This document shows, piece after piece, positions 8,197 through 44,947 of a stretch of DNA of 63,233 bases (the first letter of the stretch is position 1; each line of letters starts with the position of its first letter). The stretch is from Candidatus Hydrogenedentota bacterium (GTDB taxonomy: Bacteria; Hydrogenedentota; Hydrogenedentia; Hydrogenedentales; SLHB01). The stretch covers positions 1 through 63,233 of the forward strand of contig BTVY01000044.1 in assembly GCA_045863335.1 (NCBI GenBank), read 5' to 3'. Position numbers and translations under genes: made by a program. The notes under the pieces were generated by a model that worked only from the letters and a program-made list of their open reading frames with translations, did no database searches and was not told the DNA's origin.

Positions 8197-8931
8197 ATGG
8201 CAAACATCAATGAAATCGCGCCGGATGTGTTCCGCATCAGTGTCTACGTCAAAGACTTCGACTTGCAGTTCAACCACTTCCTTGTGCGCGACGAGGAACC
8301 GCTCCTGTATCACGCCGGCATGCGGCGCATGTTTCCCGATTTGCACGAGGCCGTCGCACAGCTCATCGATCCGAAGACGCTGCGTTGGATCAGTTGGAGC
8401 CATTTTGAAGTCGACGAGTGCGGCGCCTTGAACCATTGGCTCGAAGCCGCGCCGAATGCCGTGCCCGCGTGCAGCGTGGTCGGCGCCATGGTGAACCTCA
8501 GCGATTTCTCCGACCGGCCGCCCCAGGGCTTGGCGAAGGGGGATGTGTTGGAGACCGGCAAGTACCGGTTCCGCTTTCAGCCCACGCCGCACCTGCCCCA
8601 CGGCTGGGACGCGGGCGCGCTGTTTGAAGAGTCGCAGGGCGTCCTCTTCTGCTCGGACCTCTTTCATCAGACCGGCGAGCGCGAGGCGGTCACGAATTCG
8701 GACGACGTGCTCGGCCGCACGCGCGACGCCATGATGCACTACCAGGCCGGGCCCCTGATGGAATACCTGCCCTACACGCGCCACACCCGGCGCTTGCTCG
8801 GCGAACTCGCCGCCCTCGAACCGAAGACGTTGGCCATCATGCACGGCTCCAGCTATACCGGCGACGGCGGAAAGCTCCTTCGGGAACTCGACCCCATCCT
8901 CAGCGAGGTCTACGGCACCGAGGGAGTGTAG
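8197..8931 (+). CDS. MBL-fold metallo-hydrolase (FprA/ODP N-terminal-like, no flavodoxin domain)
   Basis: SHFEVDECG, TPHLPHGWD, CSDLF, IMHG motifs. Confidence 0.85.
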   Translation: MANINEIAPDVFRISVYVKDFDLQFNHFLVRDEEPLLYHAGMRRMFPDLHEAVAQLIDPKTLRWISWSHFEVDECGALNHWLEAAPNAVPACSVVGAMVNLSDFSDRPPQGLAKGDVLETGKYRFRFQPTPHLPHGWDAGALFEESQGVLFCSDLFHQTGEREAVTNSDDVLGRTRDAMMHYQAGPLMEYLPYTRHTRRLLGELAALEPKTLAIMHGSSYTGDGGKLLRELDPILSEVYGTEGV

Positions 8932-11186: not shown

Positions 11187-12145
11187 GATGAGACCCTCCC
11201 GGTATGTTTCAGGAAGAACTGTACGGCATGTTCCGGATACTTTTCGAATTCGGCGGCGTACTCCGAAGAACTCGAACCATGCGGGGTTTCCGGCCAAGCG
11301 GTCTCGACAGCGAACCCCGATTCCTGCAGGCTCTCGGCGAATGCTTGCGCGATACTGAACCGTGTATCCAGCGTGCCGCACATGACAAGAAATGGAACGG
11401 CGTTCGCCCCTTCGGCCGCGGGGAGTCCCGCGACGTCGGCTGTCCGGGCGTCGAACAGGTCGCGCAACCGTTCCGGGATCTTCGTCGCGTTCTCGGAATT
11501 GGAGAGAAAGGCTTTCGGGTCCCTTACCTCGCCGTATTCCTCGATCAACAGCCGTCCGTCCGGCGTGGTCCACGTTCCCGCCGCGAAGGGCGCGCAGGCC
11601 AGCACCATATCGGGATTGGCCAAGGCGAATCGATGGGCAAACTGTCCGCCCATGGAATACCCGTTCAACAGGATTTTCTCGTGCAGTTTGTACGCGGTCC
11701 GAACGTCCGCCAGCACCGCCTTGAGAAACGCATCTTCACCCAGCGCGGGAAAGCGGCTCACCTGCTTGTCGTCAGTGATGAACTCCGGCAGGATCAGCAG
11801 CGCGGGCAGCCCCGCGTCATCGGCGAGGCGCCGCATCGCAATCGCTTTGGGATTCTCCCGCGCGTTGCCGCCGCCCCCATGCACGACGACCAATGGCCAA
11901 TATTTCGTCTCCTGATCGAAATCTCTCGGCAAGGAAACGTAGTAGGTCCGCTCGGCGCCATTGAATTCGATGGTGCGCGTCAGCGGAGCGAACTCCTGTG
12001 GCTGCGTGACAGGCCCGAGGAAGAACGCGATGAGAATGTTGCATAGTCCGATGATGACAACTGCGCCCACACCCTGCGGAACAGCGCGTCCCGATTGCGA
12101 GAATCTCGATGGCGTGCGTCGCAAGCGATCGATGTGCCAGATCAT
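11183..12145 (-). CDS. Alpha/beta hydrolase (esterase/PHB-depolymerase-like)
   Basis: VVVHGGGG, GYSMGG nucleophile elbow, GTLD, TPH; exact start uncertain. Confidence 0.75.
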   Translation of the reverse strand: MIWHIDRLRRTPSRFSQSGRAVPQGVGAVVIIGLCNILIAFFLGPVTQPQEFAPLTRTIEFNGAERTYYVSLPRDFDQETKYWPLVVVHGGGGNARENPKAIAMRRLADDAGLPALLILPEFITDDKQVSRFPALGEDAFLKAVLADVRTAYKLHEKILLNGYSMGGQFAHRFALANPDMVLACAPFAAGTWTTPDGRLLIEEYGEVRDPKAFLSNSENATKIPERLRDLFDARTADVAGLPAAEGANAVPFLVMCGTLDTRFSIAQAFAESLQESGFAVETAWPETPHGSSSSEYAAEFEKYPEHAVQFFLKHTGRVSS

Positions 12146-12181
12146 TGATGCGTCATTTCAGCGGCTCGAGAGTTGGTCTCG

Positions 12182-12406
12182 TCAAACTCGCACGGCTTGA
12201 TAGATGACGGGCTGATACTTCGGCGGCGGAACGGGCTTCCCCTCCGCGCGAGCCGTCTGCAGCCAAAGCGCTTTGGCCATCTGGACTTCCTCCAACGCCT
12301 TCTCTGGCGTCGGTCCAAAGGCCGAACACGCCTCCAAATCCGGTATATCGGCGATGTACCCGTCGTCTTCATCCGAGTAGAAGATGTTGATGTGGTAGTC
12401 CTTCAT
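12182..12406 (-). CDS. hicB: HicB-family antitoxin (short form)
   Basis: MKDYHINIFYSDEDDGYIADIPDLEACSAFGPTPEKALEE, typical HicB partial RNase H fold. Confidence 0.85.
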   Translation of the reverse strand: MKDYHINIFYSDEDDGYIADIPDLEACSAFGPTPEKALEEVQMAKALWLQTARAEGKPVPPPKYQPVIYQAVRV

Positions 12407-12450
12407 CTGTCTTCCTTGAGTTTCAAGTTGTGTCGCTCGACCCGCTTCAA
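12403..12450 (-). pseudogene. C-terminal remnant of a HicA-family toxin
   Basis: Reads LKRVERHNLKLKEDR* with ATGA overlap onto hicB; in-frame stop just upstream, so the 5' part is missing. Confidence 0.5.
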
Positions 12451-12480
12451 ATGATCTCAATGGGCTGTCGCCGACCGCTG

Positions 12481-12885
12481 TTATCCTTCCGTGATGACCT
12501 CCAAGGAAGTGATACCCACGAAGTCCTTCGCGTTGTGCGTCACCAATGGAACACCATGCCGGACAGCGCAGGCTGCAATCCAAGCGTCATGTAGTGAAAT
12601 CGGCAGGCCATTGCGTCTTCGCTCCGAAGCGATTCGCGCGTACGTCCGAGCTATCTCGTGATCGTAGGGTACCACGATGTAGTTTCGAAGCTTCTCTTCC
12701 ATTTCTGCGTGGCGCCTCTGTCCCCAATTCGCGGTCTCTGCCCAGAGAAAAATCTCTCCGACACTGATAAAGGACAGAAAGAGAAACTTCCCGCTGAAAT
12801 GGCGCAAGTACGGAAGTGCGAAATCGCTGTTCTTGAGCAGATACGAAATAATGTTCGTATCCAACATCACTTTTTGGGAATCCAT
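12481..12885 (-). CDS. vapC: PIN-domain toxin (VapC-like)
   Basis: MLDTNIIS, SVGE, DAWIAACA, LVTHNAKDF. Confidence 0.9.
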   Translation of the reverse strand: MDSQKVMLDTNIISYLLKNSDFALPYLRHFSGKFLFLSFISVGEIFLWAETANWGQRRHAEMEEKLRNYIVVPYDHEIARTYARIASERRRNGLPISLHDAWIAACAVRHGVPLVTHNAKDFVGITSLEVITEG

Positions 12886-36214: not shown

Positions 36215-37090
36215 TCAGGCCGGCACGGCGGCGATGTGCTCGACGTTCGCGTCAACCTCTTTCGGGTCGAGCACGCCAATAGTCATTGCGTCGACACACC
36301 CAAGGCCCAGTACGAACTTCAGCGATTCCGGGATGCGGTCCGCGGTCTCGCCCTCGCCGGCGATCTTCATGCCCAGAATGCCCTTGCCATTGTCGTGAGC
36401 CGTCTGCAACACGGCCGCCACTTCTTCCGGCGTGCCGTCCATCTTCACGCCAAAGGGGTTGATTCGCGCGAGCATCACGTCCACCCACTCCGACTCCGCC
36501 GCGACCTTCATCGCATCCAGATTGTGGCAGGAAACGCCGTGGGCGCGGATGTAGCCCTTCGCCTTGGCTTCCGCCATTTCGTCCATGCAGGCCTTCATCG
36601 TTTCCGTCCACCCGCCGTCCGTCATGCAATGGAGGAGGCAGATGTCCATATACGGGGTATCAAGTTCCTGGCGGAAACGCTCCAGGTCTGCCCGGATGAG
36701 GCTGGGCTCCCGGGCGACCGTCTTGGTCAGCAGCATGACCTCTTCCCGCTGCACGGTGTTCTTCATCGCCTCTTTCATGTAGTCATGCGCGCCGTACATA
36801 TCGGCGAGATCAAAATAGCGAACTCCCGAGGCATACGCGTGTTCAATCAGCGATACAAACGCCTCGCGGCCTTGTCGGTTCTGCGCCGAACTCCCGTTCC
36901 ACGCCTTCGTGCCCGTGCCCATGCCTAGCAAGGAACACTGGATGCCGGTCTTGCCTAGCGTTCGCTTGCCGGTGGCCGTAAACGGACCCGCCGCCCGTGC
37001 GGGCATGGACGTAAGCCCCGCCATCGCAAGGCCCGTCGCCACACAGCCCGCGGACCGCTTCATAAAGTCACGCCGATTTATCCATCGCAT
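36215..37090 (-). CDS. Tat-exported aldo/keto reductase
   Basis: NRRDFMK; LGKTG, DLADMYG, LLHC, GVSCH. Confidence 0.9.
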   Translation of the reverse strand: MRWINRRDFMKRSAGCVATGLAMAGLTSMPARAAGPFTATGKRTLGKTGIQCSLLGMGTGTKAWNGSSAQNRQGREAFVSLIEHAYASGVRYFDLADMYGAHDYMKEAMKNTVQREEVMLLTKTVAREPSLIRADLERFRQELDTPYMDICLLHCMTDGGWTETMKACMDEMAEAKAKGYIRAHGVSCHNLDAMKVAAESEWVDVMLARINPFGVKMDGTPEEVAAVLQTAHDNGKGILGMKIAGEGETADRIPESLKFVLGLGCVDAMTIGVLDPKEVDANVEHIAAVPA

Positions 37091-37185
37091 AACCAAGACC
37101 TCCGATTTTTCGCCGGAGTCATTGTACACCACGGCCGCGCGAAGGCAAAGGACCGGCAAATTCAGCCCGCGTAACCAAAGTTCTA

Positions 37186-37299
37186 TGGAGTGCGAGGGCT
37201 TGCCCTCGCCGATTATAAAGTGTCACTGGTCCGCAACGCAGAAGGATTGGCAATGGCGTGCGATCGAACCAAATAGCGAGGGCAAGCCCTCGCACTCCA
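37186..37299. repeat. REPIN-like element (24-bp perfect inverted repeats)
   Basis: TGGAGTGCGAGGGCTTGCCCTCGC (37186-37209) and its exact reverse complement (37276-37299); each arm contains an internal hairpin. Confidence 0.8.
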
Positions 37300-37343
37300 A
37301 AGGCGCCAAACCGGCCTCGTGAATGCCATAAATAACACACCCA

Positions 37344-37373
37344 TTGACAGAATGTGTGATGCCGTGGTAGTGT
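37344..37373 (+). promoter_or_regulatory. Candidate sigma70 promoter for the peptidase/peptide locus
   Basis: TTGACA (37344), 18-nt spacer with TG extension, TAGTGT. Confidence 0.45.
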
Positions 37374-37518
37374 TCCCCTGTCACTTGAATCGGGAGTCCG
37401 CATGCAGTAGGGTTGTAAGTCAAATGACCAAACTGGGAAAAAGGGGAAATCGAAATGAGAATAATGGCGTTCAAGGGGGGGGCATGGCAATTATCTAGTC
37501 CGGTGCGCCCTCGCTGGA

Positions 37519-39228
37519 ATGGGCGTGCTCACGCTCCTGTCGCCGGTTTCGGCTGGTGAATTGGAGCCCGCAGACGCGATGATCGCGTCATCACTTATCG
37601 AAAGCATGGGCGGGCTCCCCGCGGACGAGTCGCCACGGGTATCGGTGGACGAGCGAGGCGTGGTAACCCACGTGGCCGCTCCGCGAGGCCGGTCCATGGC
37701 CGTCGCGGGCGTGTCGCCGGAGGACGGAAAAGAGCAGCGGGCCCTGGCCTTCGTCGAAACCCACGCCCAAGCGCTGGGCATCGCCAGCGGCCGCGTTGGA
37801 CTCAAGGTCCACGCCATCTCCACTACGCCGGAACGGTCCTATGTCCGCGTCCGGCAGCAGTATGACGGAATCCCCGTCCACGGCGCGGAGATCGTCATGC
37901 AACTCCAGCCCGAAGGAACCGTCAAATCCTTCCTGTCCGACATCATGACCGATACCGCCGCGTTCGACAGCGACCCGTCCGCCACGGTGCCCGGTCTGGA
38001 CCGGCCCGCCGCGTCCGAATTTGCACGTGCTGCGGCAAACCGGCTCCTGGAAAAGGCCCGGGAAGACTACGAAGCCGACATCGCCGACGCCCTCGAATCC
38101 GGCGAGATCGACGCCGAAACCGCGCAAGAACACCTCGCCCGCGCCAACGCGTCGGTGGTCGAGTTCTCCGACGAGGGGCAAGTTCTCATTTACGCGCCCC
38201 ACGTGATCGGCGCCCCCGGAGAAAACGCGTTGGTATGGGCCTTCAAAGTCCGCGACACGGAAGGGATTATGAGCCCAGTCCAGGTGTTCGTAGCCGCCGA
38301 TACTGGCGAACTTACTCACGTCAACCCGCTGGCCGCGCATGCCATCAACCGGCGCTTGTACGACAACAAGTTGGACGGCGATCCGGGCATACCTTACGCA
38401 ACGCTGCGCCGCACGGAAGCCAGCGGTCCTGTGACCATTTTTCAGACAATCCATTTCGTCGATTTCAATGCCCATTGGGACATCCTGGGATATACATACG
38501 ACTACTTCAATGACAATCACGCCTGGGATGCCATGGATGGTGTCGGAGGTACGATTTACTCGTACATGCGATGGCAACTCGAACCTAATGCGTTCTATTC
38601 GTTCGACGATGATCTTATGAAGTTCGGGACCAACGGGTTCGCAGTTTCGGATGATTTGGTTGGTCACGAATTTACTCATGGTGTTCTTTGGCATATCGCG
38701 GAACTCAGCTACGTATTGGAATCTGGGACTCTGCACGAAACCCTTGCCGATATGTGGGGTGAATTCGTGGATTGGTCGTGCCCTGTATTGGGGAATGACC
38801 AAGCTGCCAAGAAGTGGAAGGTGGGTGAGACGACCGCCACGGGTGTCTTCCGGAATATGAAGAATCCGCCAGCCAAGGATCATCCTGACAGATATCAGGG
38901 GACATATTGGTATTTCTTCCCGTCTGGACCGTTAACCGACGAGGAGTGGTGGGAAGCCAATGACATCTTTGTGCACACGAATAGCGGCGTAGGCAACAAG
39001 CTCGCCTACTTGCTAACCGATGGCGATACTTTCAACGGAGAAACGATCAACGGTATGGGTGAAACAGTAGTTCGAAACCTCTACTGGGAAGCCGTTCAGT
39101 TGATGCCGACTAATCTTGGGTACCACGACTTTTTCCAATTGCTTCTGGATGCGGCAGACAATCTCGGCATGACCACAGCTCAAATCAACAATATCCAGAG
39201 CGCAGGTGCGGCAGTTGCAATTGACTAG
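37519..39228 (+). CDS. M4 (thermolysin-family) zinc metallopeptidase with FTP/PepSY-type propeptide
   Basis: VRVRQQYDGIPVHGA (FTP), VFVAADTG (PepSY), NAFY, HEFTH, ESGTLHE..AD, VHTNSG..NK; the true start is probably 37455, across a G8 frameshift. Confidence 0.92.
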   Translation: MGVLTLLSPVSAGELEPADAMIASSLIESMGGLPADESPRVSVDERGVVTHVAAPRGRSMAVAGVSPEDGKEQRALAFVETHAQALGIASGRVGLKVHAISTTPERSYVRVRQQYDGIPVHGAEIVMQLQPEGTVKSFLSDIMTDTAAFDSDPSATVPGLDRPAASEFARAAANRLLEKAREDYEADIADALESGEIDAETAQEHLARANASVVEFSDEGQVLIYAPHVIGAPGENALVWAFKVRDTEGIMSPVQVFVAADTGELTHVNPLAAHAINRRLYDNKLDGDPGIPYATLRRTEASGPVTIFQTIHFVDFNAHWDILGYTYDYFNDNHAWDAMDGVGGTIYSYMRWQLEPNAFYSFDDDLMKFGTNGFAVSDDLVGHEFTHGVLWHIAELSYVLESGTLHETLADMWGEFVDWSCPVLGNDQAAKKWKVGETTATGVFRNMKNPPAKDHPDRYQGTYWYFFPSGPLTDEEWWEANDIFVHTNSGVGNKLAYLLTDGDTFNGETINGMGETVVRNLYWEAVQLMPTNLGYHDFFQLLLDAADNLGMTTAQINNIQSAGAAVAID

Positions 39229-39307
39229 GTAAACGTTGTTGCCACTAGACTAGACTTCTTAAACATGCAAGCCGGATTGTAGATTGGCTTCGCAAGGGAG
39301 TGAATCC

Positions 39308-39493
39308 ATGAACAGAATCAGTGCTGTAACTCGTGAACCAGTAGCATCACACCCCATCTTGGCTGCATCGGCGCTGCCACGATCGGACTGGGGCCGCTAC
39401 AAGGATTGCGTAAACGCGCAGAGTACGCTGAGCGGCAAGAAGGGATGCCTGAACGAATACCTCGACGATTTGGCCGAGGACAAGAATCCGTAG
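39308..39493 (+). CDS. Array peptide 1 (61 aa, leader + C-x12-C core)
   Basis: MNRISAVTREPVASHPILAASALPRSDWGRYKDCVNAQSTLSGKKGCLNEYLDDLAEDKNP; GGGAG RBS. Confidence 0.85.
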   Translation: MNRISAVTREPVASHPILAASALPRSDWGRYKDCVNAQSTLSGKKGCLNEYLDDLAEDKNP

Positions 39494-39580
39494 TGGGCCA
39501 TTCCGCCAAAACGGTTGACTTGGATTTGTATTGTTGAGGTAAATCGCTTTCCGGGCAGTTTGGGACCAAAGGGGAGAAAT

Positions 39581-39754
39581 ATGCCTAAGATTCACGCGAT
39601 GACCCGAGAGCCACGTTTGAGATGCTCCGCGCCGGCGAGCGCCTTGCTTCCACAGTCAGACCATGAGCGCTTCAAACTGTGTCTCACGGAGCAAACGTCG
39701 CTGGCCGGAAAGAAGGAATGCTTCGATGAATACCAGATGACGAAGGAGGAATAG
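39581..39754 (+). CDS. Array peptide 2 (57 aa)
   Basis: MPKIHAMTREPRLRCSAPASALLPQSDHERFKLCLTEQTSLAGKKECFDEYQMTKEE; GGGGAG RBS. Confidence 0.85.
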   Translation: MPKIHAMTREPRLRCSAPASALLPQSDHERFKLCLTEQTSLAGKKECFDEYQMTKEE

Positions 39755-39820
39755 AGCGCGCTACTTTCTTCGCTTTGAGGACGAGGATGGCAATCACGGT
39801 CGAAAGTGGGAGTATCAGAA

Positions 39821-40003
39821 ATGCGGAGATTCAATCGAGTGAATCATTTCTCGTTAGTGACCCTTCCGAGGCCCGCTGAAGTGATCTGGCTAGGGAATGC
39901 CGTCACCCATTTCAAGGAATGTCACTCGCATCAAACCACGGTCAGCGGGAAGAAGGAATGCTACGAGACCTATCAGTCAGAGAAATCCGAGAAACAACAA
40001 TAG
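39821..40003 (+). CDS. Array peptide 3 (60 aa)
   Basis: MRRFNRVNHFSLVTLPRPAEVIWLGNAVTHFKECHSHQTTVSGKKECYETYQSEKSEKQQ; GGGAG RBS. Confidence 0.85.
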   Translation: MRRFNRVNHFSLVTLPRPAEVIWLGNAVTHFKECHSHQTTVSGKKECYETYQSEKSEKQQ

Positions 40004-40078
40004 TGCCTTGTGCGCCCGTTTTTCCAAAGCTGAATTCACAGAGCGGACACCGGCGGCAAATTTCGAGAGGTACCCTGA

Positions 40079-40267
40079 ATGTGTAGAATCCGGACGATTG
40101 GCAGACAACGGAAGATGGCGACGCGCGCGTTTCCCCGAGCTGCATTTCGGGTGACTGCGCCGTGGGAGGAGTACAAGGCCTGCGTGGTCCAGGAGAAAGG
40201 TTCACCTGAGGGTAAGAAGGCTTGTTACGAGGCCTTTCGGGAGTCGGCCGCCAGCGAGGAAGAGTAA
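40079..40267 (+). CDS. Array peptide 4 (62 aa, C-x13-C)
   Basis: MCRIRTIGRQRKMATRAFPRAAFRVTAPWEEYKACVVQEKGSPEGKKACYEAFRESAASEEE; GAGG RBS. Confidence 0.8.
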   Translation: MCRIRTIGRQRKMATRAFPRAAFRVTAPWEEYKACVVQEKGSPEGKKACYEAFRESAASEEE

Positions 40268-40370
40268 GCCGCACGCCCGGTGAATCAGTGGCGCAGAATT
40301 CGCGGTGACTCCAATCGACGCCAAGTGCCTTGGCGCTGATTACAGGCCGTGAGTACTAAGGCGTCCGTGA

Positions 40371-40404
40371 TGCCGCCTCTCCGTTATCCGGCGGGGAGGC
40401 GGCA
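40371..40404 (+). promoter_or_regulatory. Conserved 5' hairpin, copy 1
   Basis: TGCCGCCTCTCCGT-tatccg-GCGGGGAGGCGGCA upstream of peptide 5. Confidence 0.75.
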
Positions 40405-40433
40405 ATCGGGCGAAACGTTGGGAGGGTATCATC

Positions 40434-40613
40434 GTGTCTGCTATCAAATGCGTGAGCCGGCGTCGCGACGGGAGGCGCCTCATTCCCGCGCGCGCTTTTC
40501 AAGCGGAGACGCCGAAGGAGCGTTACAAGGACTGCGAAAGCGAGCAGACGACCTTGGGCGGTCTCGCCTCGTGTTACCGCACGTTCTTGCAGGAGAAGGC
40601 CCAAGACAAGTAG
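40434..40613 (+). CDS. Array peptide 5 (59 aa; absent from the ORF track)
   Basis: Hand-translated from GTG: MSAIKCVSRRRDGRRLIPARAFQAETPKERYKDCESEQTTLGGLASCYRTFLQEKAQDK; GGAGG RBS. Confidence 0.85.
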   Translation: MSAIKCVSRRRDGRRLIPARAFQAETPKERYKDCESEQTTLGGLASCYRTFLQEKAQDK

Positions 40614-40692
40614 GACCGCGGATTGTGGGGGGTGTCGAGATTGGTTGAATCCACGGGTTGCGCGCATGGCGCAACGCGAAAGGGGTGTTTAC

Positions 40693-40878
40693 ATGTCGAG
40701 AATCCGATCCATAAGCCGAGTTCCCTTCAATGAAGAACGCATACCCGCCAGGGCTTATCTCCCGGAAACTGATTCGGAACGGTACAAGGCGTGTCTCGAA
40801 GAGCAGACCACGCTCGGCGGAAAAGTGGGTTGCTTCGTCGACTATATGGTTGCGCTTTCGGATAAGAGCCAACTGTAG
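40693..40878 (+). CDS. Array peptide 6 (61 aa)
   Basis: MSRIRSISRVPFNEERIPARAYLPETDSERYKACLEEQTTLGGKVGCFVDYMVALSDKSQL; AGGGG RBS. Confidence 0.85.
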   Translation: MSRIRSISRVPFNEERIPARAYLPETDSERYKACLEEQTTLGGKVGCFVDYMVALSDKSQL

Positions 40879-40915
40879 CCCTGCGGTCGCGAGATTCTGG
40901 AACAGATTCGCCGAG

Positions 40916-40947
40916 TGCCGCCTCTTCATCATAGGGGGGAGGTGGAA
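40916..40947 (+). promoter_or_regulatory. Conserved 5' hairpin, copy 2 (degenerate)
   Basis: TGCCGCCTCTTC-atcata-GGGGGGAGGTGGAA; pairing kept through G-U pairs. Confidence 0.65.
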
Positions 40948-40976
40948 ATCGGGCGAAACGGTGGAAGGGTATCATT

Positions 40977-41162
40977 GTGCCTGCTATCAGATGCGTGAGT
41001 CGTCGCCGTGACGGGAGACGCCACATCCCTGCCTCGGCGTTTACTGCTGAGACACCCCGTTTCCGCTATAAGATGTGTCTCACCGAGCAGAGTACGTTGA
41101 CCGGCAAGAAGGGATGTCTTAGTGACTATATTGATGAGTTGGCGGACGAAAAGAACCCGTAG
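40977..41162 (+). CDS. Array peptide 7 (61 aa)
   Basis: MPAIRCVSRRRDGRRHIPASAFTAETPRFRYKMCLTEQSTLTGKKGCLSDYIDELADEKNP. Confidence 0.85.
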   Translation: MPAIRCVSRRRDGRRHIPASAFTAETPRFRYKMCLTEQSTLTGKKGCLSDYIDELADEKNP

Positions 41163-41242
41163 CGGAGACCGTCCGTGATCGATTTCGTCGAGCAGGACCC
41201 ACGTTTCGGACAAGATAGCGTGTTAGGAGAAGGAGGGGGACC

Positions 41243-41425
41243 ATGCAACGAATCAAACGTATTAGCCGAGTGTCATTTCTGTCGACTTCGATACCAATGC
41301 CAGCGGTACGCGTAGTGGAACCGTGGGAATACTGGATAGCGTGCCTTCTCAAGCCGTCGGCATGGGTGACTGGCAAGAAGCAGTGCTACTGCGACTATCT
41401 TGAGAACCCTCCGTTGGAGGGATAG
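41243..41425 (+). CDS. Array peptide 8 (60 aa, C-x13-C)
   Basis: MQRIKRISRVSFLSTSIPMPAVRVVEPWEYWIACLLKPSAWVTGKKQCYCDYLENPPLEG; AGGAGG RBS. Confidence 0.8.
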   Translation: MQRIKRISRVSFLSTSIPMPAVRVVEPWEYWIACLLKPSAWVTGKKQCYCDYLENPPLEG

Positions 41426-41481
41426 TCACGCGAAGTTCCACATGAAAGCCGTTCCATTGCTTGCGGCATTGGGTTCCCGCG

Positions 41482-41519
41482 ATTGCTGCCTTTTCGTCAT
41501 CCGGCCGAGAGGCGGCAAT
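41482..41519 (+). promoter_or_regulatory. Conserved 5' hairpin, copy 3
   Basis: ATTGCTGCCTTTTCG...CGAGAGGCGGCAAT upstream of peptide 9. Confidence 0.7.
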
Positions 41520-41543
41520 GGCTAACTTTGGGAGGGTATCCTC

Positions 41544-41729
41544 GTGCCTACTATCAAATGCGTGAGTCGGCGTTGCGACGGGAGACGCCGCATCCCTGCC
41601 TCGGCCGTCTTGCCCGAGTCGCCGCAGAATCGTTACAAATCCTGTCTGAACGCACAGACGACGCTGAGCGGCAAGAAGGGTTGCCAGAGCGAATACCTCG
41701 ACGAACTATCCGAGGACAAGAATTCTTAG
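41544..41729 (+). CDS. Array peptide 9 (61 aa)
   Basis: MPTIKCVSRRCDGRRRIPASAVLPESPQNRYKSCLNAQTTLSGKKGCQSEYLDELSEDKNS. Confidence 0.85.
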   Translation: MPTIKCVSRRCDGRRRIPASAVLPESPQNRYKSCLNAQTTLSGKKGCQSEYLDELSEDKNS

Positions 41730-41808
41730 TGGAGACTGACCGCGATCGATCTAGTTGAGCGAGACCCGCGTTTCGGTCGAGAAATTCCGTTAGGAGACGG
41801 TGGGGACC

Positions 41809-41991
41809 ATGCAAAGAATGAAGCGTATTACCCGGGTTCCGTATTCGACAAATCGAATTCCCGCGATCGCTTCCTGGGAAGGAAACGCGCTCTCACACTT
41901 CCAGACTTGCCACTTCTATGCGACGACGAAGAGCGAGAAGAAAGACTGTTACGAGACTTTTCAGTCGGAAAAGGCCGCTGAAAAGCAATAG
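41809..41991 (+). CDS. Array peptide 10 (60 aa)
   Basis: MQRMKRITRVPYSTNRIPAIASWEGNALSHFQTCHFYATTKSEKKDCYETFQSEKAAEKQ. Confidence 0.85.
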   Translation: MQRMKRITRVPYSTNRIPAIASWEGNALSHFQTCHFYATTKSEKKDCYETFQSEKAAEKQ

Positions 41992-42144
41992 AGGATAGAC
42001 GATTGATGGGTTCGCATCTAACCGGCCGTTGCGGGGAGGACTAAGAGGCCGGCTACTACGGCAGCCTTAGCCCAATTGCGGAGAACGCGCTGAGGAATGG
42101 GTCCCCACACGGCAACTGGTCACGACGCGTCATTAAATCTCCGT

Positions 42145-42182
42145 ATTGCCGCCTCTCCGCCATCCGGCGGAGAGGCGGCAAT
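42145..42182 (+). promoter_or_regulatory. Conserved 5' hairpin, copy 4 (perfect 17-bp stem)
   Basis: ATTGCCGCCTCTCCGCC-ATCC-GGCGGAGAGGCGGCAAT. Confidence 0.8.
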
Positions 42183-42209
42183 CGGGCTAAAGCTTGGGAG
42201 GGTATCATC

Positions 42210-42395
42210 GTGCCTGCTATCAAATGTGTGAGCCGACGTAGCGACGGGAGACGCAGCATCCCTGCCTCGGCCGTCTTGCCCGAGTCGCCGCAGAATCGTT
42301 ACAAATCCTGTCTGAACGAGCAGACGACACTGAGCGGCAAGAAGGGATGCCTGAACGAATACCTCGACGAATTGGCCGAGGACAAGAATCCGTAG
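42210..42395 (+). CDS. Array peptide 11 (61 aa)
   Basis: MPAIKCVSRRSDGRRSIPASAVLPESPQNRYKSCLNEQTTLSGKKGCLNEYLDELAEDKNP. Confidence 0.85.
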   Translation: MPAIKCVSRRSDGRRSIPASAVLPESPQNRYKSCLNEQTTLSGKKGCLNEYLDELAEDKNP

Positions 42396-42478
42396 CGAAG
42401 GCTCTGCCTGAAGTGATTTCGTTGAGAGGAAATGCACGTTAGCCGAACCGGGGATTGTGAGATGAAAAGGAGGGGACC

Positions 42479-42661
42479 ATGCAGAGAATCAAACGCATTA
42501 GCCGGGTTCCGTATTCGACAAATCGAGTTCCCGCGATAGCTTTCTGGGAAGGAGACGCGCTCACGCGTTTTCAGACATGTCATTTCCATGCGACGACGAA
42601 GCGTGAGAAGAAAGACTGTTACGAAACTTTTCAGTCGGAAAAGACGGCAGAGAAGCAATAG
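42479..42661 (+). CDS. Array peptide 12 (60 aa)
   Basis: MQRIKRISRVPYSTNRVPAIAFWEGDALTRFQTCHFHATTKREKKDCYETFQSEKTAEKQ; AGGAGG RBS. Confidence 0.85.
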   Translation: MQRIKRISRVPYSTNRVPAIAFWEGDALTRFQTCHFHATTKREKKDCYETFQSEKTAEKQ

Positions 42662-42776
42662 TGGAAAGTGGAAAGAGTTTAGCCGATTGGCGCAGAGTGT
42701 TCTTCAAGCACAATCCGGCATCCCCATGCCAATCGGCTGAGTTGTTGCGAATGTCTACGATTGCTGAGTATCTCAA

Positions 42777-43244
42777 GTGAATAAGCACATGCGAATCTAT
42801 GTGGACACATCAGTCGTCGGGGGATGTCTTGACGATGAATTCCGCGACGGTTCTGTTCAACTTTTTGACCGTTTTCGGCGTGGCGATGCAGTTGCCGTCT
42901 TATCCGATATTACGTTAGCGGAACTGGCTGGAGCCCCTCCTTCAGTGCAGGCGATAGTCGAGGGCTTGCCGGATTTTTCTGTGGAATACGTACGTCAGAG
43001 CAATGAGGCCGAAGAACTGGCGGACGCGTACATACTCGGAAAAGCCGTTCCTCGTCGCATGCGGTTAGATGCCCAACATATTGCAATAGCAACGGTTGCC
43101 CGTGTGGATGTGCTGGTCAGTTGGAACTTCAAGCATATCGTCAACTTGGATCGCATTCGGGCTTTCAATGCGGTCAATTCGGAATTGGGGTAGAATCAAT
43201 TGGAGATTCGGGCGCCGTTGGAGATCTGGAAAGATGAAGACTAA
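42777..43244 (+). pseudogene. PIN-domain protein with a premature TAG at 43191
   Basis: RIYVDTSVVGG, DAQHIAIAT, VSWNFKHIVN; after the TAG the frame continues NQLEIRAPLEIWKDED*, resembling the usual G-Y-x-x-LEIR-x-P-x-E ending. Confidence 0.7.
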
Positions 43245-43407
43245 GACATTCGATTCGGTAAAGCTGATGCGCAAGCTGCGTGAGGAGCTGAGCCGGGAGA
43301 TGTCGGCTATGGCATCTGAGGAGAAGATCCGCTTCATTCAAGAGAAAGCCTCTGCAATGCGCATTCCCGCGTCGCGCAACCGAGCGGGCGAACCTTCCCC
43401 AGATTAA
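43234..43407 (+). CDS. Small putative antitoxin partner of the PIN gene
   Basis: MKTKTFDSVKLMRKLREELSREMSAM..EEKIRFI; overlaps the read-through end of the PIN gene. Confidence 0.65.
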   Translation: MKTKTFDSVKLMRKLREELSREMSAMASEEKIRFIQEKASAMRIPASRNRAGEPSPD

Positions 43408-43450
43408 CTTCTCGATTCGTCGGTCCCGGCCACCAGCGTTTGGTTGTCGG

Positions 43451-44947
43451 CTATCGAGTGCCATTCCCCGCCCAGAACGCATATAACCGCGCGTTCTTGA
43501 GGGTGAACCGGATCCTTACGGGACGGTCCGGCAGGGTCGTGCCGTCTTCCCATTGGACGGCCGCGTCGAGCGAATCTTCCGTGACCGGCCCGGAGCGCGC
43601 GAGCGTCTCGCCGGTGTCCGGGTCGATCAGTTCGACTAGGACCTCGCCGAAACGGCTTTCGAGGTTCAGGCGAAGGTCGCTGCTTGCCAAGCGAACGGGC
43701 TGCGTCTCCACGACGCCGCCGGAAGATGGGGCGTCCAAGGACACAAACCGGTCCAACGCGATCGTTCCAAAACCGATACCGCCTCCGGGTTCGCCCTTGT
43801 CGTCGCCTTGGTAGGGGCTGTGGCGATACGTGCGTCCACCGAAGTAGAAGCGGAGATCGTCTCCGACGCGAATGGGAGGATTGTTCGCCACGGAGGTGTT
43901 GAAGCGATCCCATTCGCCCACGGGACCCACCGGAATGAAGGGCGTCCGGTCGCCGACGCGCGTGAAGGATGCGCCGTCCCGGCTCACGGCAAGCTGGATG
44001 TCAAGGTAGCAGGCGTCCTCGCGGTTGTAGAACATCTGGACGAGGCCGATGTACAGTCCCTCGTAGGGGAACACGTTCATTGAATAGATTTCCGTGCCGG
44101 GCGGATCGTTCGCATCGGCCGTCATGACGACGGGCGCCGTTGCCGGTGCGGTGAAACTCCAGTCCAGAAAATCGGGCGACTCGACCCGCGCTGCGGCCCG
44201 GCCCCAGTAGTATTGCTCCACCCAGGGATCGCTTCCCCACGCGGCCAGCAGGTCCGGCGGCGTGAATTTGGTGCGACCAAAGAGGACGTAATTGTTGGTC
44301 GCCGGGTCCACCATCCAATAGGTGCCGCCGTCGCAGATGGCCTCGGTGGCCCAACTATTGGCCAGGGTCCAATGGATGCCGTCCGGACTCGTCTTTACTC
44401 CGAGCCCACGCCGCTGCCCGCCGTGGAACGGGTCTTCGCTGGGTCCCGAATAATCGCGTTCGATGCTGAGATAGCCCATGACGTAGCGGGCGTTGGGATC
44501 GTCCGCGTTCTCGTCCTTGTGCACGCCGAAGAGTTCGTAGAAATAGGGGAGGTAGTTCGGCGCGCCCTCTGCGGCGTTGCGGTCGATGAGGACGTTCGTG
44601 TCGTTCCCATCGATTTCGTGCAAGCCCTGGGCCGGCTTGGTCCAGGCGATGCCGTCCTCGCTCTCGGCATAACTCACGCCCGAACCGCCGTGATACCACA
44701 TGCGATAGCGATCGCCGTCGCGCAAGACCGAGCCGTACACGATAGCCACCTTGCCTTCCCACGCTTCGGTCGGCCACAGGATCGGGTTGTGTTCGCTCTT
44801 CGTGACCGGCTGGATCGTCCACGTGACGTTGTCCATGCGCGCGATGAGGTGGTCGTCGAGAAAGAGCTGCTTCGTGGAATCCACGACGATGGGATCTTGA
44901 GCCGACGCGGCGAGCGTCGCGAGGATGAGTAGGGGCAGGAAGCGCAT
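43451..44947 (-). CDS. Secreted five-bladed beta-propeller glycosidase-like protein (GH32/GH43/GH130-like fold)
   Basis: KQLFLDD, NPIL, YRMWY, AESEDGIAW, SPDGIHW, SPDFLDW, SRDG repeats. Confidence 0.75.
   Translation of the reverse strand: MRFLPLLILATLAASAQDPIVVDSTKQLFLDDHLIARMDNVTWTIQPVTKSEHNPILWPTEAWEGKVAIVYGSVLRDGDRYRMWYHGGSGVSYAESEDGIAWTKPAQGLHEIDGNDTNVLIDRNAAEGAPNYLPYFYELFGVHKDENADDPNARYVMGYLSIERDYSGPSEDPFHGGQRRGLGVKTSPDGIHWTLANSWATEAICDGGTYWMVDPATNNYVLFGRTKFTPPDLLAAWGSDPWVEQYYWGRAAARVESPDFLDWSFTAPATAPVVMTADANDPPGTEIYSMNVFPYEGLYIGLVQMFYNREDACYLDIQLAVSRDGASFTRVGDRTPFIPVGPVGEWDRFNTSVANNPPIRVGDDLRFYFGGRTYRHSPYQGDDKGEPGGGIGFGTIALDRFVSLDAPSSGGVVETQPVRLASSDLRLNLESRFGEVLVELIDPDTGETLARSGPVTEDSLDAAVQWEDGTTLPDRPVRIRFTLKNARLYAFWAGNGTR

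Follow-up and report, generated by a model that had tools for sequence, protein, structure and literature searches.

The peptidase gene and the array behind it

The window analysed here is contig BTVY01000044.1 of a Candidatus Hydrogenedentota bacterium (63,233 nucleotides (nt), forward strand), and the element in question is a gene for a thermolysin-family (M4) pre-pro-peptidase with twelve co-oriented, paralogous genes downstream of it on the + strand, each encoding a peptide of 57–62 amino acids (aa) (Table 1). The stop codon of the peptidase gene (TAG, 39226–39228) is separated from the ATG of the first peptide gene (39308) by 79 nt, and a purine-rich, Shine-Dalgarno-like stretch lies 5–10 nt ahead of each of the twelve open reading frames (ORFs). 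This layout was confirmed as the original prediction, made from the bare sequence, had described it; peptide 5, which the prediction had noted as missing from the ORF track, is a real gene at 40434–40613 with a GTG start, a start codon that it shares with peptides 7, 9 and 11. In the alignment of the twelve peptides, the initial Met and the two Cys residues are the only invariant columns, and identity to the first copy ranges from 22 to 59%. The Cys spacing is also as predicted, C-x12-C in ten peptides and C-x13-C in the remaining two (peptides 4 and 8). At the DNA level, a 210-nt unit occurs four times (peptides 5, 7, 9 and 11) and a 205-nt unit occurs twice with 85% identity (peptides 10 and 12), indicating that parts of the array are recent duplications and the remainder is old. 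The G+C content of the 1-kb bins over the array (39001–43000) is 0.51–0.585, against about 0.60 on either side.

The sequence places the enzyme in peptidase family M4, because the HExxH motif, the Glu ligand and the catalytic His are all present and the Pfam scores exceed the gathering cut-offs (Peptidase_M4_C, 82.6 bits with a cut-off of 24.4; Peptidase_M4, 35.8 with 22.4; FTP propeptide, 32.2 with 21). The M4 body aligns to thermolysin residues 71–314, with HEFTH in place of HELTH, the Glu of HETLAD in place of that of NEAISD, and VHTNSG in place of VHINSG; the same zinc-site motifs are kept in three orthologues, and the catalytic domain matches the solved protealysin precursor 2vqx (E 2.5e-9). 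In all four M4 orthologues an A-x-A-I sequence directly follows the end of the PepSY-like propeptide, a possible self-processing site. The three orthologous genes start in frame at an equivalent ATG and encode Sec-type signal peptides. In the source genome, a run of eight G (37475–37482) shifts the ATG at 37455, which has a good ribosome-binding site, by one base relative to the frame of the assembled M4 body; this ATG, which the original prediction had used, is taken as the true start although it does not join the body in this assembly. One contig from an RNA library has seven G at the run, which restores the frame, whereas contigs from an independent DNA run have eight; the difference could reflect phase variation, transcriptional slippage, a strain difference or an assembly error. 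Upstream of the gene, TTGACA-N18-TAGTGT is the sole match to this pattern in the window (0.04 expected) and lies about 80 nt before the ATG at 37455. TTGACA-N18-TAG[TA]GT also precedes the M4 gene at three other M4 loci and may be a promoter consensus of this uncultured lineage; a scan with consensus promoters and terminators performed no better than shuffles.

The array-linked M4 enzymes are short (569–587 aa), and among 54 genomes of the taxonomic family, short M4 genes with at least 65% identity are confined to this genus. Other M4 matches in these genomes are at most 43% identical and lie in open frames of about 540–1390 aa, mostly above 1000. Long M4 frames, mostly of more than 1000 codons, are found in many genomes of the family, and the array-linked enzyme has no long C-terminal extension; the source genome itself carries a second M4 paralogue (G000:C5:154259-155788) in a 1141-codon frame, about 41% identical in the catalytic part.

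The pairing of peptidase and array recurs. An intact short M4 gene lies 55–87 nt upstream of the peptide genes, on the same strand, at four of the five loci whose upstream side is visible (this window in genome G000, G026:C154, G025:C9 and G025:C18), the fifth having M4 fragments only; two further array loci are cut by contig ends. The co-occurrence with M4 peptidases that the original prediction had put up for checking is thus found at four of five loci. The fragments all derive from the 3' end of the gene: two lie inside the array of G023:C243 (L029; 5479–5778 and 6842–7123) and one, in addition to the intact gene, between peptide genes of G025:C9 (L027; 9334–9699). They are 50–74% identical to M4 residues ~444–569, showing that duplication units took in the end of the peptidase gene. 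G023 also carries a long M4 paralogue.

The loci lie in four different genomic contexts, with genes for polysaccharide degradation and housekeeping functions, a pyruvate:ferredoxin oxidoreductase, a microcompartment shell protein or alaS nearby, and the short M4 gene is their sole common neighbour. No modifying enzyme, ATP-binding cassette (ABC) exporter or common regulator is present in these four contexts. In agreement with the prediction for the window, a scan of its 42 ORFs revealed no modification enzyme and no ABC exporter, and the 19 flanking ORFs at three other loci likewise include no modification enzyme. Since the same M4 neighbour accompanies the array in differing contexts and the short M4 is found in the genus only, the short M4 gene and the array are a genus-level invention that moves as a unit.

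Table 1. Positions of the peptidase gene, the peptide genes and associated features in the window
Feature	Position	Strand	Details
Promoter-like TTGACA-N18-TAGTGT	37344..37373	+	upstream of M4 gene
M4 gene, 5' end	37455..37518	+	ATG with Shine-Dalgarno, signal-peptide coding part, 8-G run
M4 (thermolysin-family) pro-peptidase body	37519..39228	+	569 aa as assembled
Peptide 1	39308..39493	+	61 aa; profile E 6.6e-25
Peptide 2	39581..39754	+	57 aa; profile E 3.5e-24
Peptide 3	39821..40003	+	60 aa from profile-fitting ATG; upstream GTG 39806 also open
Peptide 4	40079..40267	+	62 aa; C-x13-C; profile E 2e-22
RNA-type hairpin, ~30 nt upstream of peptide 5	40369..40406	+	
Peptide 5	40434..40613	+	59 aa; GTG start; G026 orthologue 93% identical
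Peptide 6	40693..40878	+	61 aa; orthologues in three species
Same hairpin, degenerate copy, upstream of peptide 7	40914..40949	+	
Peptide 7	40977..41162	+	61 aa; GTG start
Peptide 8	41243..41425	+	60 aa; C-x13-C; Trp-rich core
Same hairpin, upstream of peptide 9	41482..41519	+	
Peptide 9	41544..41729	+	61 aa; GTG start
Peptide 10	41809..41991	+	60 aa; G026 orthologue 93% identical
Same hairpin, upstream of peptide 11	42145..42182	+	14 G-C-rich and 3 A-U pairs, 4-nt loop
Peptide 11	42210..42395	+	61 aa; GTG start; AlphaFold2-modelled
Peptide 12	42479..42661	+	60 aa; AlphaFold2-modelled

The peptide family

The twelve ORFs are genuine genes under purifying selection, because the ratio of nonsynonymous to synonymous substitution (dN/dS) is low in the proposed frame only and the subtypes are kept across species. 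Pooled over 18 orthologous or close pairs, which overlap in membership and are not independent, the Nei-Gojobori dN/dS of the proposed frame is 0.19, with 0.13 in the core and 0.35 in the N-terminal segment, whereas the same nucleotides read in the two shifted frames give 1.43 and 1.53. The original prediction had made purifying selection a test of itself, and selection is present and frame-specific. Peptide 6 shares 93%, 77% and 70% identity with its orthologues in three species, compared with 48% with its best paralogue, and peptide 3 is 83% (G026) and 73% (G025) identical to its orthologues, compared with 47% to its best paralogue. For peptides 3, 5, 6 and 10 together, the G026 orthologue is 83–93% identical and the best paralogue within the genome 47–83%. 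As orthologues are closer than paralogues of the same genome, the subtypes are evidently older than the species split. Copy number, gene order and array content vary between strains and species. The RNA libraries of two studies contain contigs over the M4 gene's 5' half and over peptides 1–6, with single contigs spanning peptides 1–4, which is a weak hint that the module is expressed; carry-over of DNA is possible.

A profile built from the twelve peptides, searched against the 6.75-Mb source genome (99.4% complete), retrieves exactly the twelve array genes (E 5e-29 to 2e-22), the next match having an E-value of 0.39. The search of this genome and of related metagenome-assembled genomes that the original prediction had proposed yielded arrays in four of the five other species of the genus: nine copies in G023, ten in G026, eight in two loci in G025, and one at a contig end in G024. 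No family member is found in G022, an 81% complete genome. In G025:C18 (L028), one peptide copy (8756–8914) ends early at a TAG, giving 52 aa instead of 59 with loss of the charged tail. Against 1.84 billion representative proteins the profile gives 22 matches, of which 19 are relatives of 43–97 residues; the other three, long and internally repetitive proteins, were set aside. Against 5.8 billion clusters it gives 25 matches, all either named "hypothetical protein" or nameless. A larger, 54-sequence profile finds the family in five of 135 genomes, and one of 66 genera, of the phylum Hydrogenedentota. Four weak matches outside the genus (E 0.002–0.008), three in long open frames (209–361 aa) and one in an 85-aa frame, were rejected as chance, being gone with the larger profile at E 1e-4.

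The prediction had recognised no known family, and database searches bear this out. None of the twelve peptides scores above threshold for any Pfam or NCBIfam model; seven of them, together with the M4 enzyme and two neighbouring ORFs, match no family in PADLOC or PHROGs; and a profile search of all PDB sequences returns chance-level rows only (best E 0.23). The ESM Atlas gave no usable match to the peptides, two peptide sub-alignments have no match among metagenome contigs, and viral contigs scanned with the peptide alignment and with the M4 alignment yielded nothing. In the literature, a search for Hydrogenedentes together with metalloprotease found no papers, and an M4 peptidase paired with such a peptide array is unreported in the literature searched. 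By these comparisons, the peptides constitute an undescribed, narrowly distributed small-protein family.

Across 53 distinct members of the family, two parts can be told apart in each peptide. About 21 aa long, the N-terminal segment (M-x-R-I-K-x-V-S-R-x-P ... P-A-x-A) is basic, with a mean net charge of +3.9 (range +1 to +7), and its best-kept columns are I4, S8, R9, P11 and then P-A-x-A. The rest has a mean net charge of -0.9 (-4 to +3), and its best-kept columns are Y-K-x-C, Q-T-T-L-x-G-K-K-x-C-Y and, later, a Tyr and a Glu; between the Cys residues the counts are Q 40, T 37, T 39, L 33, G 48, K 46 and K 38. The residue after P-A-x-A is bulky and hydrophobic in 39 of the 53 (F 17, V 10, I 7, L 2, Y 2, M 1) and Ala in six more, and the residue after that is Leu or Trp in 30. 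The original prediction had read the peptides as a conserved leader with a variable core; the reverse is found, since the core is the better conserved part both in profile information (47–71 bits over 37 positions, versus 19–35 bits over 22 positions for the leader) and in dN/dS. Separate leader and core profiles, as the prediction had suggested building, each match the twelve array genes and nothing else in the genome, so the leader is not a general targeting signal of the organism. It resembles a signal peptide in starting basic and ending in P-A-x-A, but nothing between the two is hydrophobic.

AlphaFold2 models of peptides 11 and 12, built with the 54-sequence alignment, lack regular secondary structure in residues 1–26 and place helices at residues 27–37 and 41–59, with the same limits in both subtypes. 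Mean predicted local distance difference test (pLDDT) values are 74 for peptide 11 and 73 for peptide 12, with block means of 62–76 for residues 1–26 and about 85 for the core. The peptides are therefore predicted to combine a disordered N-terminal segment with a helix-turn-helix core of about 40 aa, matching, in the two subtypes modelled, the helical hairpin that had been proposed from sequence. Searched against the PDB with Foldseek, the peptide model has no match at E <=0.001, and VIA-align over 48,161 chains gives a best Z of 3.9, a score generic for helical hairpins. Its whole-chain look-alikes include the plant peptides Jug r 2 (Z 3.8, root mean square deviation 1.8 Å, 37 residues aligned) and Luffin P1 (Z 3.5, 1.9 Å, 37 residues aligned), with scores in the range of any helical hairpin and all Foldseek E-values above 1. 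Luffin P1, VBP-8 and the Jug r 2 leader belong to the plant alpha-hairpinins and vicilin-buried peptides, which are Cys-held helix-loop-helix peptides of about 40 residues, proteolytically freed from larger precursors, some of them trypsin inhibitors or antimicrobials. Unlike the peptides here, which have one Cys per predicted helix, alpha-hairpinins have four Cys, two per helix (C-x3-C ... C-x3-C); they are also eukaryotic and have no sequence relation to this family.

What the module may do

We favour, at a probability of roughly 0.4, a reading in which the peptides are pro-peptides cut by the M4 enzyme at the A-x-A/hydrophobic junction, the whole being an effector module. It builds on the observed genes, selection and M4 linkage and on a predicted fold, and from these we infer the cleavage, its site, export, the disulfide and an extracellular role. 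The module would have two parts and be self-contained: an M4 pro-peptidase that is dedicated to it and exported by Sec, and, downstream, an array of pro-peptide genes organised like an operon. When synthesised, every peptide would carry a pro-segment of some 21 basic, unstructured residues ending in P-A-x-A, and the enzyme would cleave between the last Ala of this motif and the next, hydrophobic residue. The released product would be a helix-turn-helix of about 40 residues, roughly neutral to acidic, its hairpin held by the two invariant Cys, which may be joined by a disulfide after the peptide has left the cell. The approximately eight conserved subtypes would then act as a cocktail of extracellular effectors, whether signals, antagonists or protease inhibitors.

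Removal of the N-terminal segment by the M4 enzyme is suggested by the fit of P-A-x-A and the following hydrophobic residues to the preference of M4 enzymes, by the A-x-A-I that all four M4 orthologues carry after their own propeptide region, and by the dedicated protease gene that precedes the array, intact at four of the five visible loci. PMC6778150 states that M4 enzymes of the protealysin-like and thermolysin types favour a small residue at P1 and hydrophobic ones at P1' and P2'. Such a maturation also has a parallel in the Bacillus cereus group, where the M4 neutral protease NprB trims the exported pro-peptide PapR to its active form, as reported in PMC4701985, citing Pomerantsev 2009. 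There, however, PapR carries an ordinary signal peptide, its one gene is paired with the receptor PlcR, and the product is short and linear, whereas the locus here has twelve genes for peptides that lack a signal peptide, no nearby receptor gene and a predicted folded product of 40 residues.

Several findings weigh against this reading. A serious objection is that the M4 enzyme is Sec-exported and the peptides have neither an export signal nor an exporter, so that the place where the two would meet is unexplained: the stretch from S-R-x-P to P-A-x-A is polar or charged in all 53 leaders read by eye, and the hydrophobic core of about ten or more residues typical of Sec and Tat signal peptides is seen in none of them. 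The core is more conserved than the pro-segment, unlike in classic leader-guided systems. G023 keeps nine peptide genes with the linked M4 gene reduced to 3' fragments, and in the source genome the 5' end of the M4 gene is frameshifted as assembled. All loci come from one genus and are hence not independent. With respect to the Cys pair, the turn at residues 38–40 of the models would set Cys34 opposite residue 44 rather than Cys47, and neither DsbA (PF01323), Thioredoxin_4 (PF13462), DsbB (PF02600) nor VKOR (PF07884) has a match in the genome (99.4% complete), although these models do match in 3–9 of 14 control genomes. Enzyme-made disulfides are accordingly doubtful on this genomic survey. 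A complex prediction of the M4 catalytic domain (residues 265–569, with zinc) and peptide 11 scored 0.01 against a mark of 0.32, in a run without controls, and speaks neither for nor against binding. A more far-reaching form of the proposal is less probable. In it, the M4 enzyme would be dedicated to maturing a genome-encoded library of folded helical hairpins that carry no modification; the peptides, with the N- and C-regions of a signal peptide in their basic pro-segment but no hydrophobic core, would leave the cell by an undescribed route and serve as diversified extracellular effectors, for example as inhibitors of other organisms' proteases. This would be a kind of peptide system previously unknown, in a candidate phylum.

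The main rival, an unlikely one in our estimation, is that the M4 peptidase, or more than one peptidase, is inhibited or regulated by the peptides. They might be cytoplasmic guards against prematurely active enzyme, as staphostatins are for staphopains and emfourin for protealysin, and for this the missing signal peptide is suitable; the peptide genes also lie directly downstream of a protease gene on the same strand, the arrangement of protease-inhibitor gene pairs such as staphopain-staphostatin and protealysin-emfourin. Protealysin-emfourin, to which the original prediction had pointed, indeed shares with this locus a small gene directly downstream of the M4 gene. Emfourin, however, is one protein of larger size, and protealysin lacks a signal peptide and has a short propeptide, whereas a signal peptide and an FTP propeptide both belong to the enzyme of this locus. 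At the sequence level a relation to emfourin is excluded, as the twelve peptides have no Pfam match even at E up to 1, in a database that presumably holds an emfourin model, and no PDB profile match. Alternatively, the peptides might be extracellular, tight-binding pseudo-substrates that insert the Cys-bracketed Q-T-T-L-x-G-K-K loop into the active-site cleft. The inter-Cys segment is the best-conserved stretch, with a hydrophobic residue at the would-be P1' place, a position that varies by subtype (L, V, K, W, P). SMPI, a standard-mechanism protein inhibitor of thermolysin-family enzymes, is likewise small, with a Cys-bracketed loop that carries a hydrophobic P1' residue. IMPI, an insect inhibitor of the same type, shares these traits and blocks thermolysins through a disulfide-bracketed loop that is cut at Asn-Ile (PMC9002140), and the closest whole-chain look-alikes, at non-significant scores, are plant hairpin peptides whose family includes trypsin inhibitors. 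IMPI, however, has five disulfides and a mainly beta fold, whereas the peptides here have one possible disulfide, an all-helical prediction and no sequence similarity to it; nor are they related in sequence to emfourin or any solved inhibitor, and the inter-helix turn in the AlphaFold models has just three residues and no extended loop. Moreover, eight to twelve diverged paralogues would be unusual for one enzyme, the enzyme already bears its own inhibitory FTP/PepSY-type propeptide, and the conserved N-terminal segment would be left without a role.

Less probable again is a cytoplasmic Cys pair that binds metal or senses redox state, perhaps in dimers with four thiolates, and is coupled to the peptidase by something other than cleavage or inhibition, such as zinc supply or assistance in secretion. 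The absence of a signal peptide and exporter suits such a role, as does the lack of detected periplasmic disulfide-forming genes, with which an invariant Cys pair is easier to understand as a metal site; two subtypes have C-H-x-H by the first Cys, and most others have a Glu at +3. However, Cys residues 12–13 apart on a helical hairpin match no metal-site motif in profile searches, the His residues vary across subtypes, and neither the diversified twelve-gene array nor the P-A-x-A/hydrophobic motif would be accounted for. A tandem repeat that is decaying or selfish and currently has no function is nearly excluded as an account of the array: copy number and order do differ between species, some arrays contain M4 3' fragments, and the G+C content of the array lies below that of its surroundings, but selection is frame-specific, all twelve frames are open with ribosome-binding sites, and subtypes remain 70–93% identical across three other species.

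The layout of a precursor cluster for peptides synthesized ribosomally and modified post-translationally (RiPPs) or bacteriocins, which the original prediction had seen here, found only partial support. Like RiPP, class II bacteriocin and microcin loci, this one has tandem small genes beside a protease gene, and, as there, an N-terminal segment with shared motifs precedes a distinct C-terminal part. Unlike them, the array has no modifying enzyme, double-glycine motif or peptidase-ABC exporter, and its C-terminal half is the more conserved one. A co-encoded modification enzyme, by which RiPPs are recognised, was not found among the ORFs scanned here and at three other loci, and the leaders end in P-A-x-A rather than the G-G or G-A of class II bacteriocins and class IIa microcins, with no ABC exporter in the window. 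True RiPP precursors whose modifying enzymes and exporter lie elsewhere in the genome, with the M4 enzyme as leader peptidase, are therefore very unlikely. Such precursors would explain the leader-plus-core look, the multi-copy array and the neighbouring protease, and a 2023 leader-peptidase review states that proteases and other RiPP genes sometimes lie outside their clusters (PMC10885120). Against them stand the four contexts without an adjoining modifying enzyme, a leader profile that matches nothing else in the genome, conservation that favours the core, and a core predicted as a folded mini-domain rather than a flexible substrate. The same review names the metalloprotease families M1, M16, M61, M103, M50 and M79, and the word thermolysin is absent from it.

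What is known, then, is the general logic of a protease beside small leader-bearing peptides or beside an inhibitor; what is new is the peptide family, its M4 partner, a leader that has no hydrophobic core, and a locus that lacks modifying and export genes. Should the M4 enzyme mature the peptides, thermolysin-family peptidases would join the makers of bioactive peptides, and one protease with interchangeable 60-residue precursors would constitute a compact module of two gene types from which folded mini-proteins could be produced. Should they inhibit the enzyme instead, M4 would gain a new class of small helical inhibitors; this family includes many bacterial virulence proteases, and few protein inhibitors of it have, to our knowledge, been found. 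Either way, the module would offer the first experimentally approachable trait for Hydrogenedentota, an uncultured wastewater lineage, and a leader that resembles a signal peptide with its hydrophobic core missing raises the question of how the peptides exit the cell.

Hairpins and other features of the window

A G-C-rich hairpin of up to 17–19 pairs lies about 30 nt upstream of every GTG-start copy and is not followed by a T-run. The same hairpin precedes two copies in G026 (L030). Among the 19 predicted pairs, ten show one-sided changes that preserve pairing, all of them to G-U, and one shows a two-sided change; the G-U-type changes preserve pairing only in the transcript of the + strand. 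A search of Rfam with positions 36900–43500 returned one sub-threshold microRNA match and no family for the hairpin. These hairpins may be processing or stabilising sites within a long transcript.

Between an aldo-keto reductase gene and the M4 promoter (37180–37300), a G-C-rich palindrome (GCGAGGGC..GCCCTCGC) occurs twice in opposite order, and the copies look like repetitive extragenic palindromic (REP) elements. Directly after the array lies a 138-aa ORF (42777–43193) with weak similarity to PIN domains (E 0.07–0.14), overlapped by a 103-aa ORF (43096–43407); the two may be a toxin-antitoxin-like pair at the edge of the inserted module. Elsewhere in the window, a clear PIN-domain gene (12481–12885, E 8e-14) adjoins two small ORFs within 11961–12454, with which it probably forms a VapBC-type pair.

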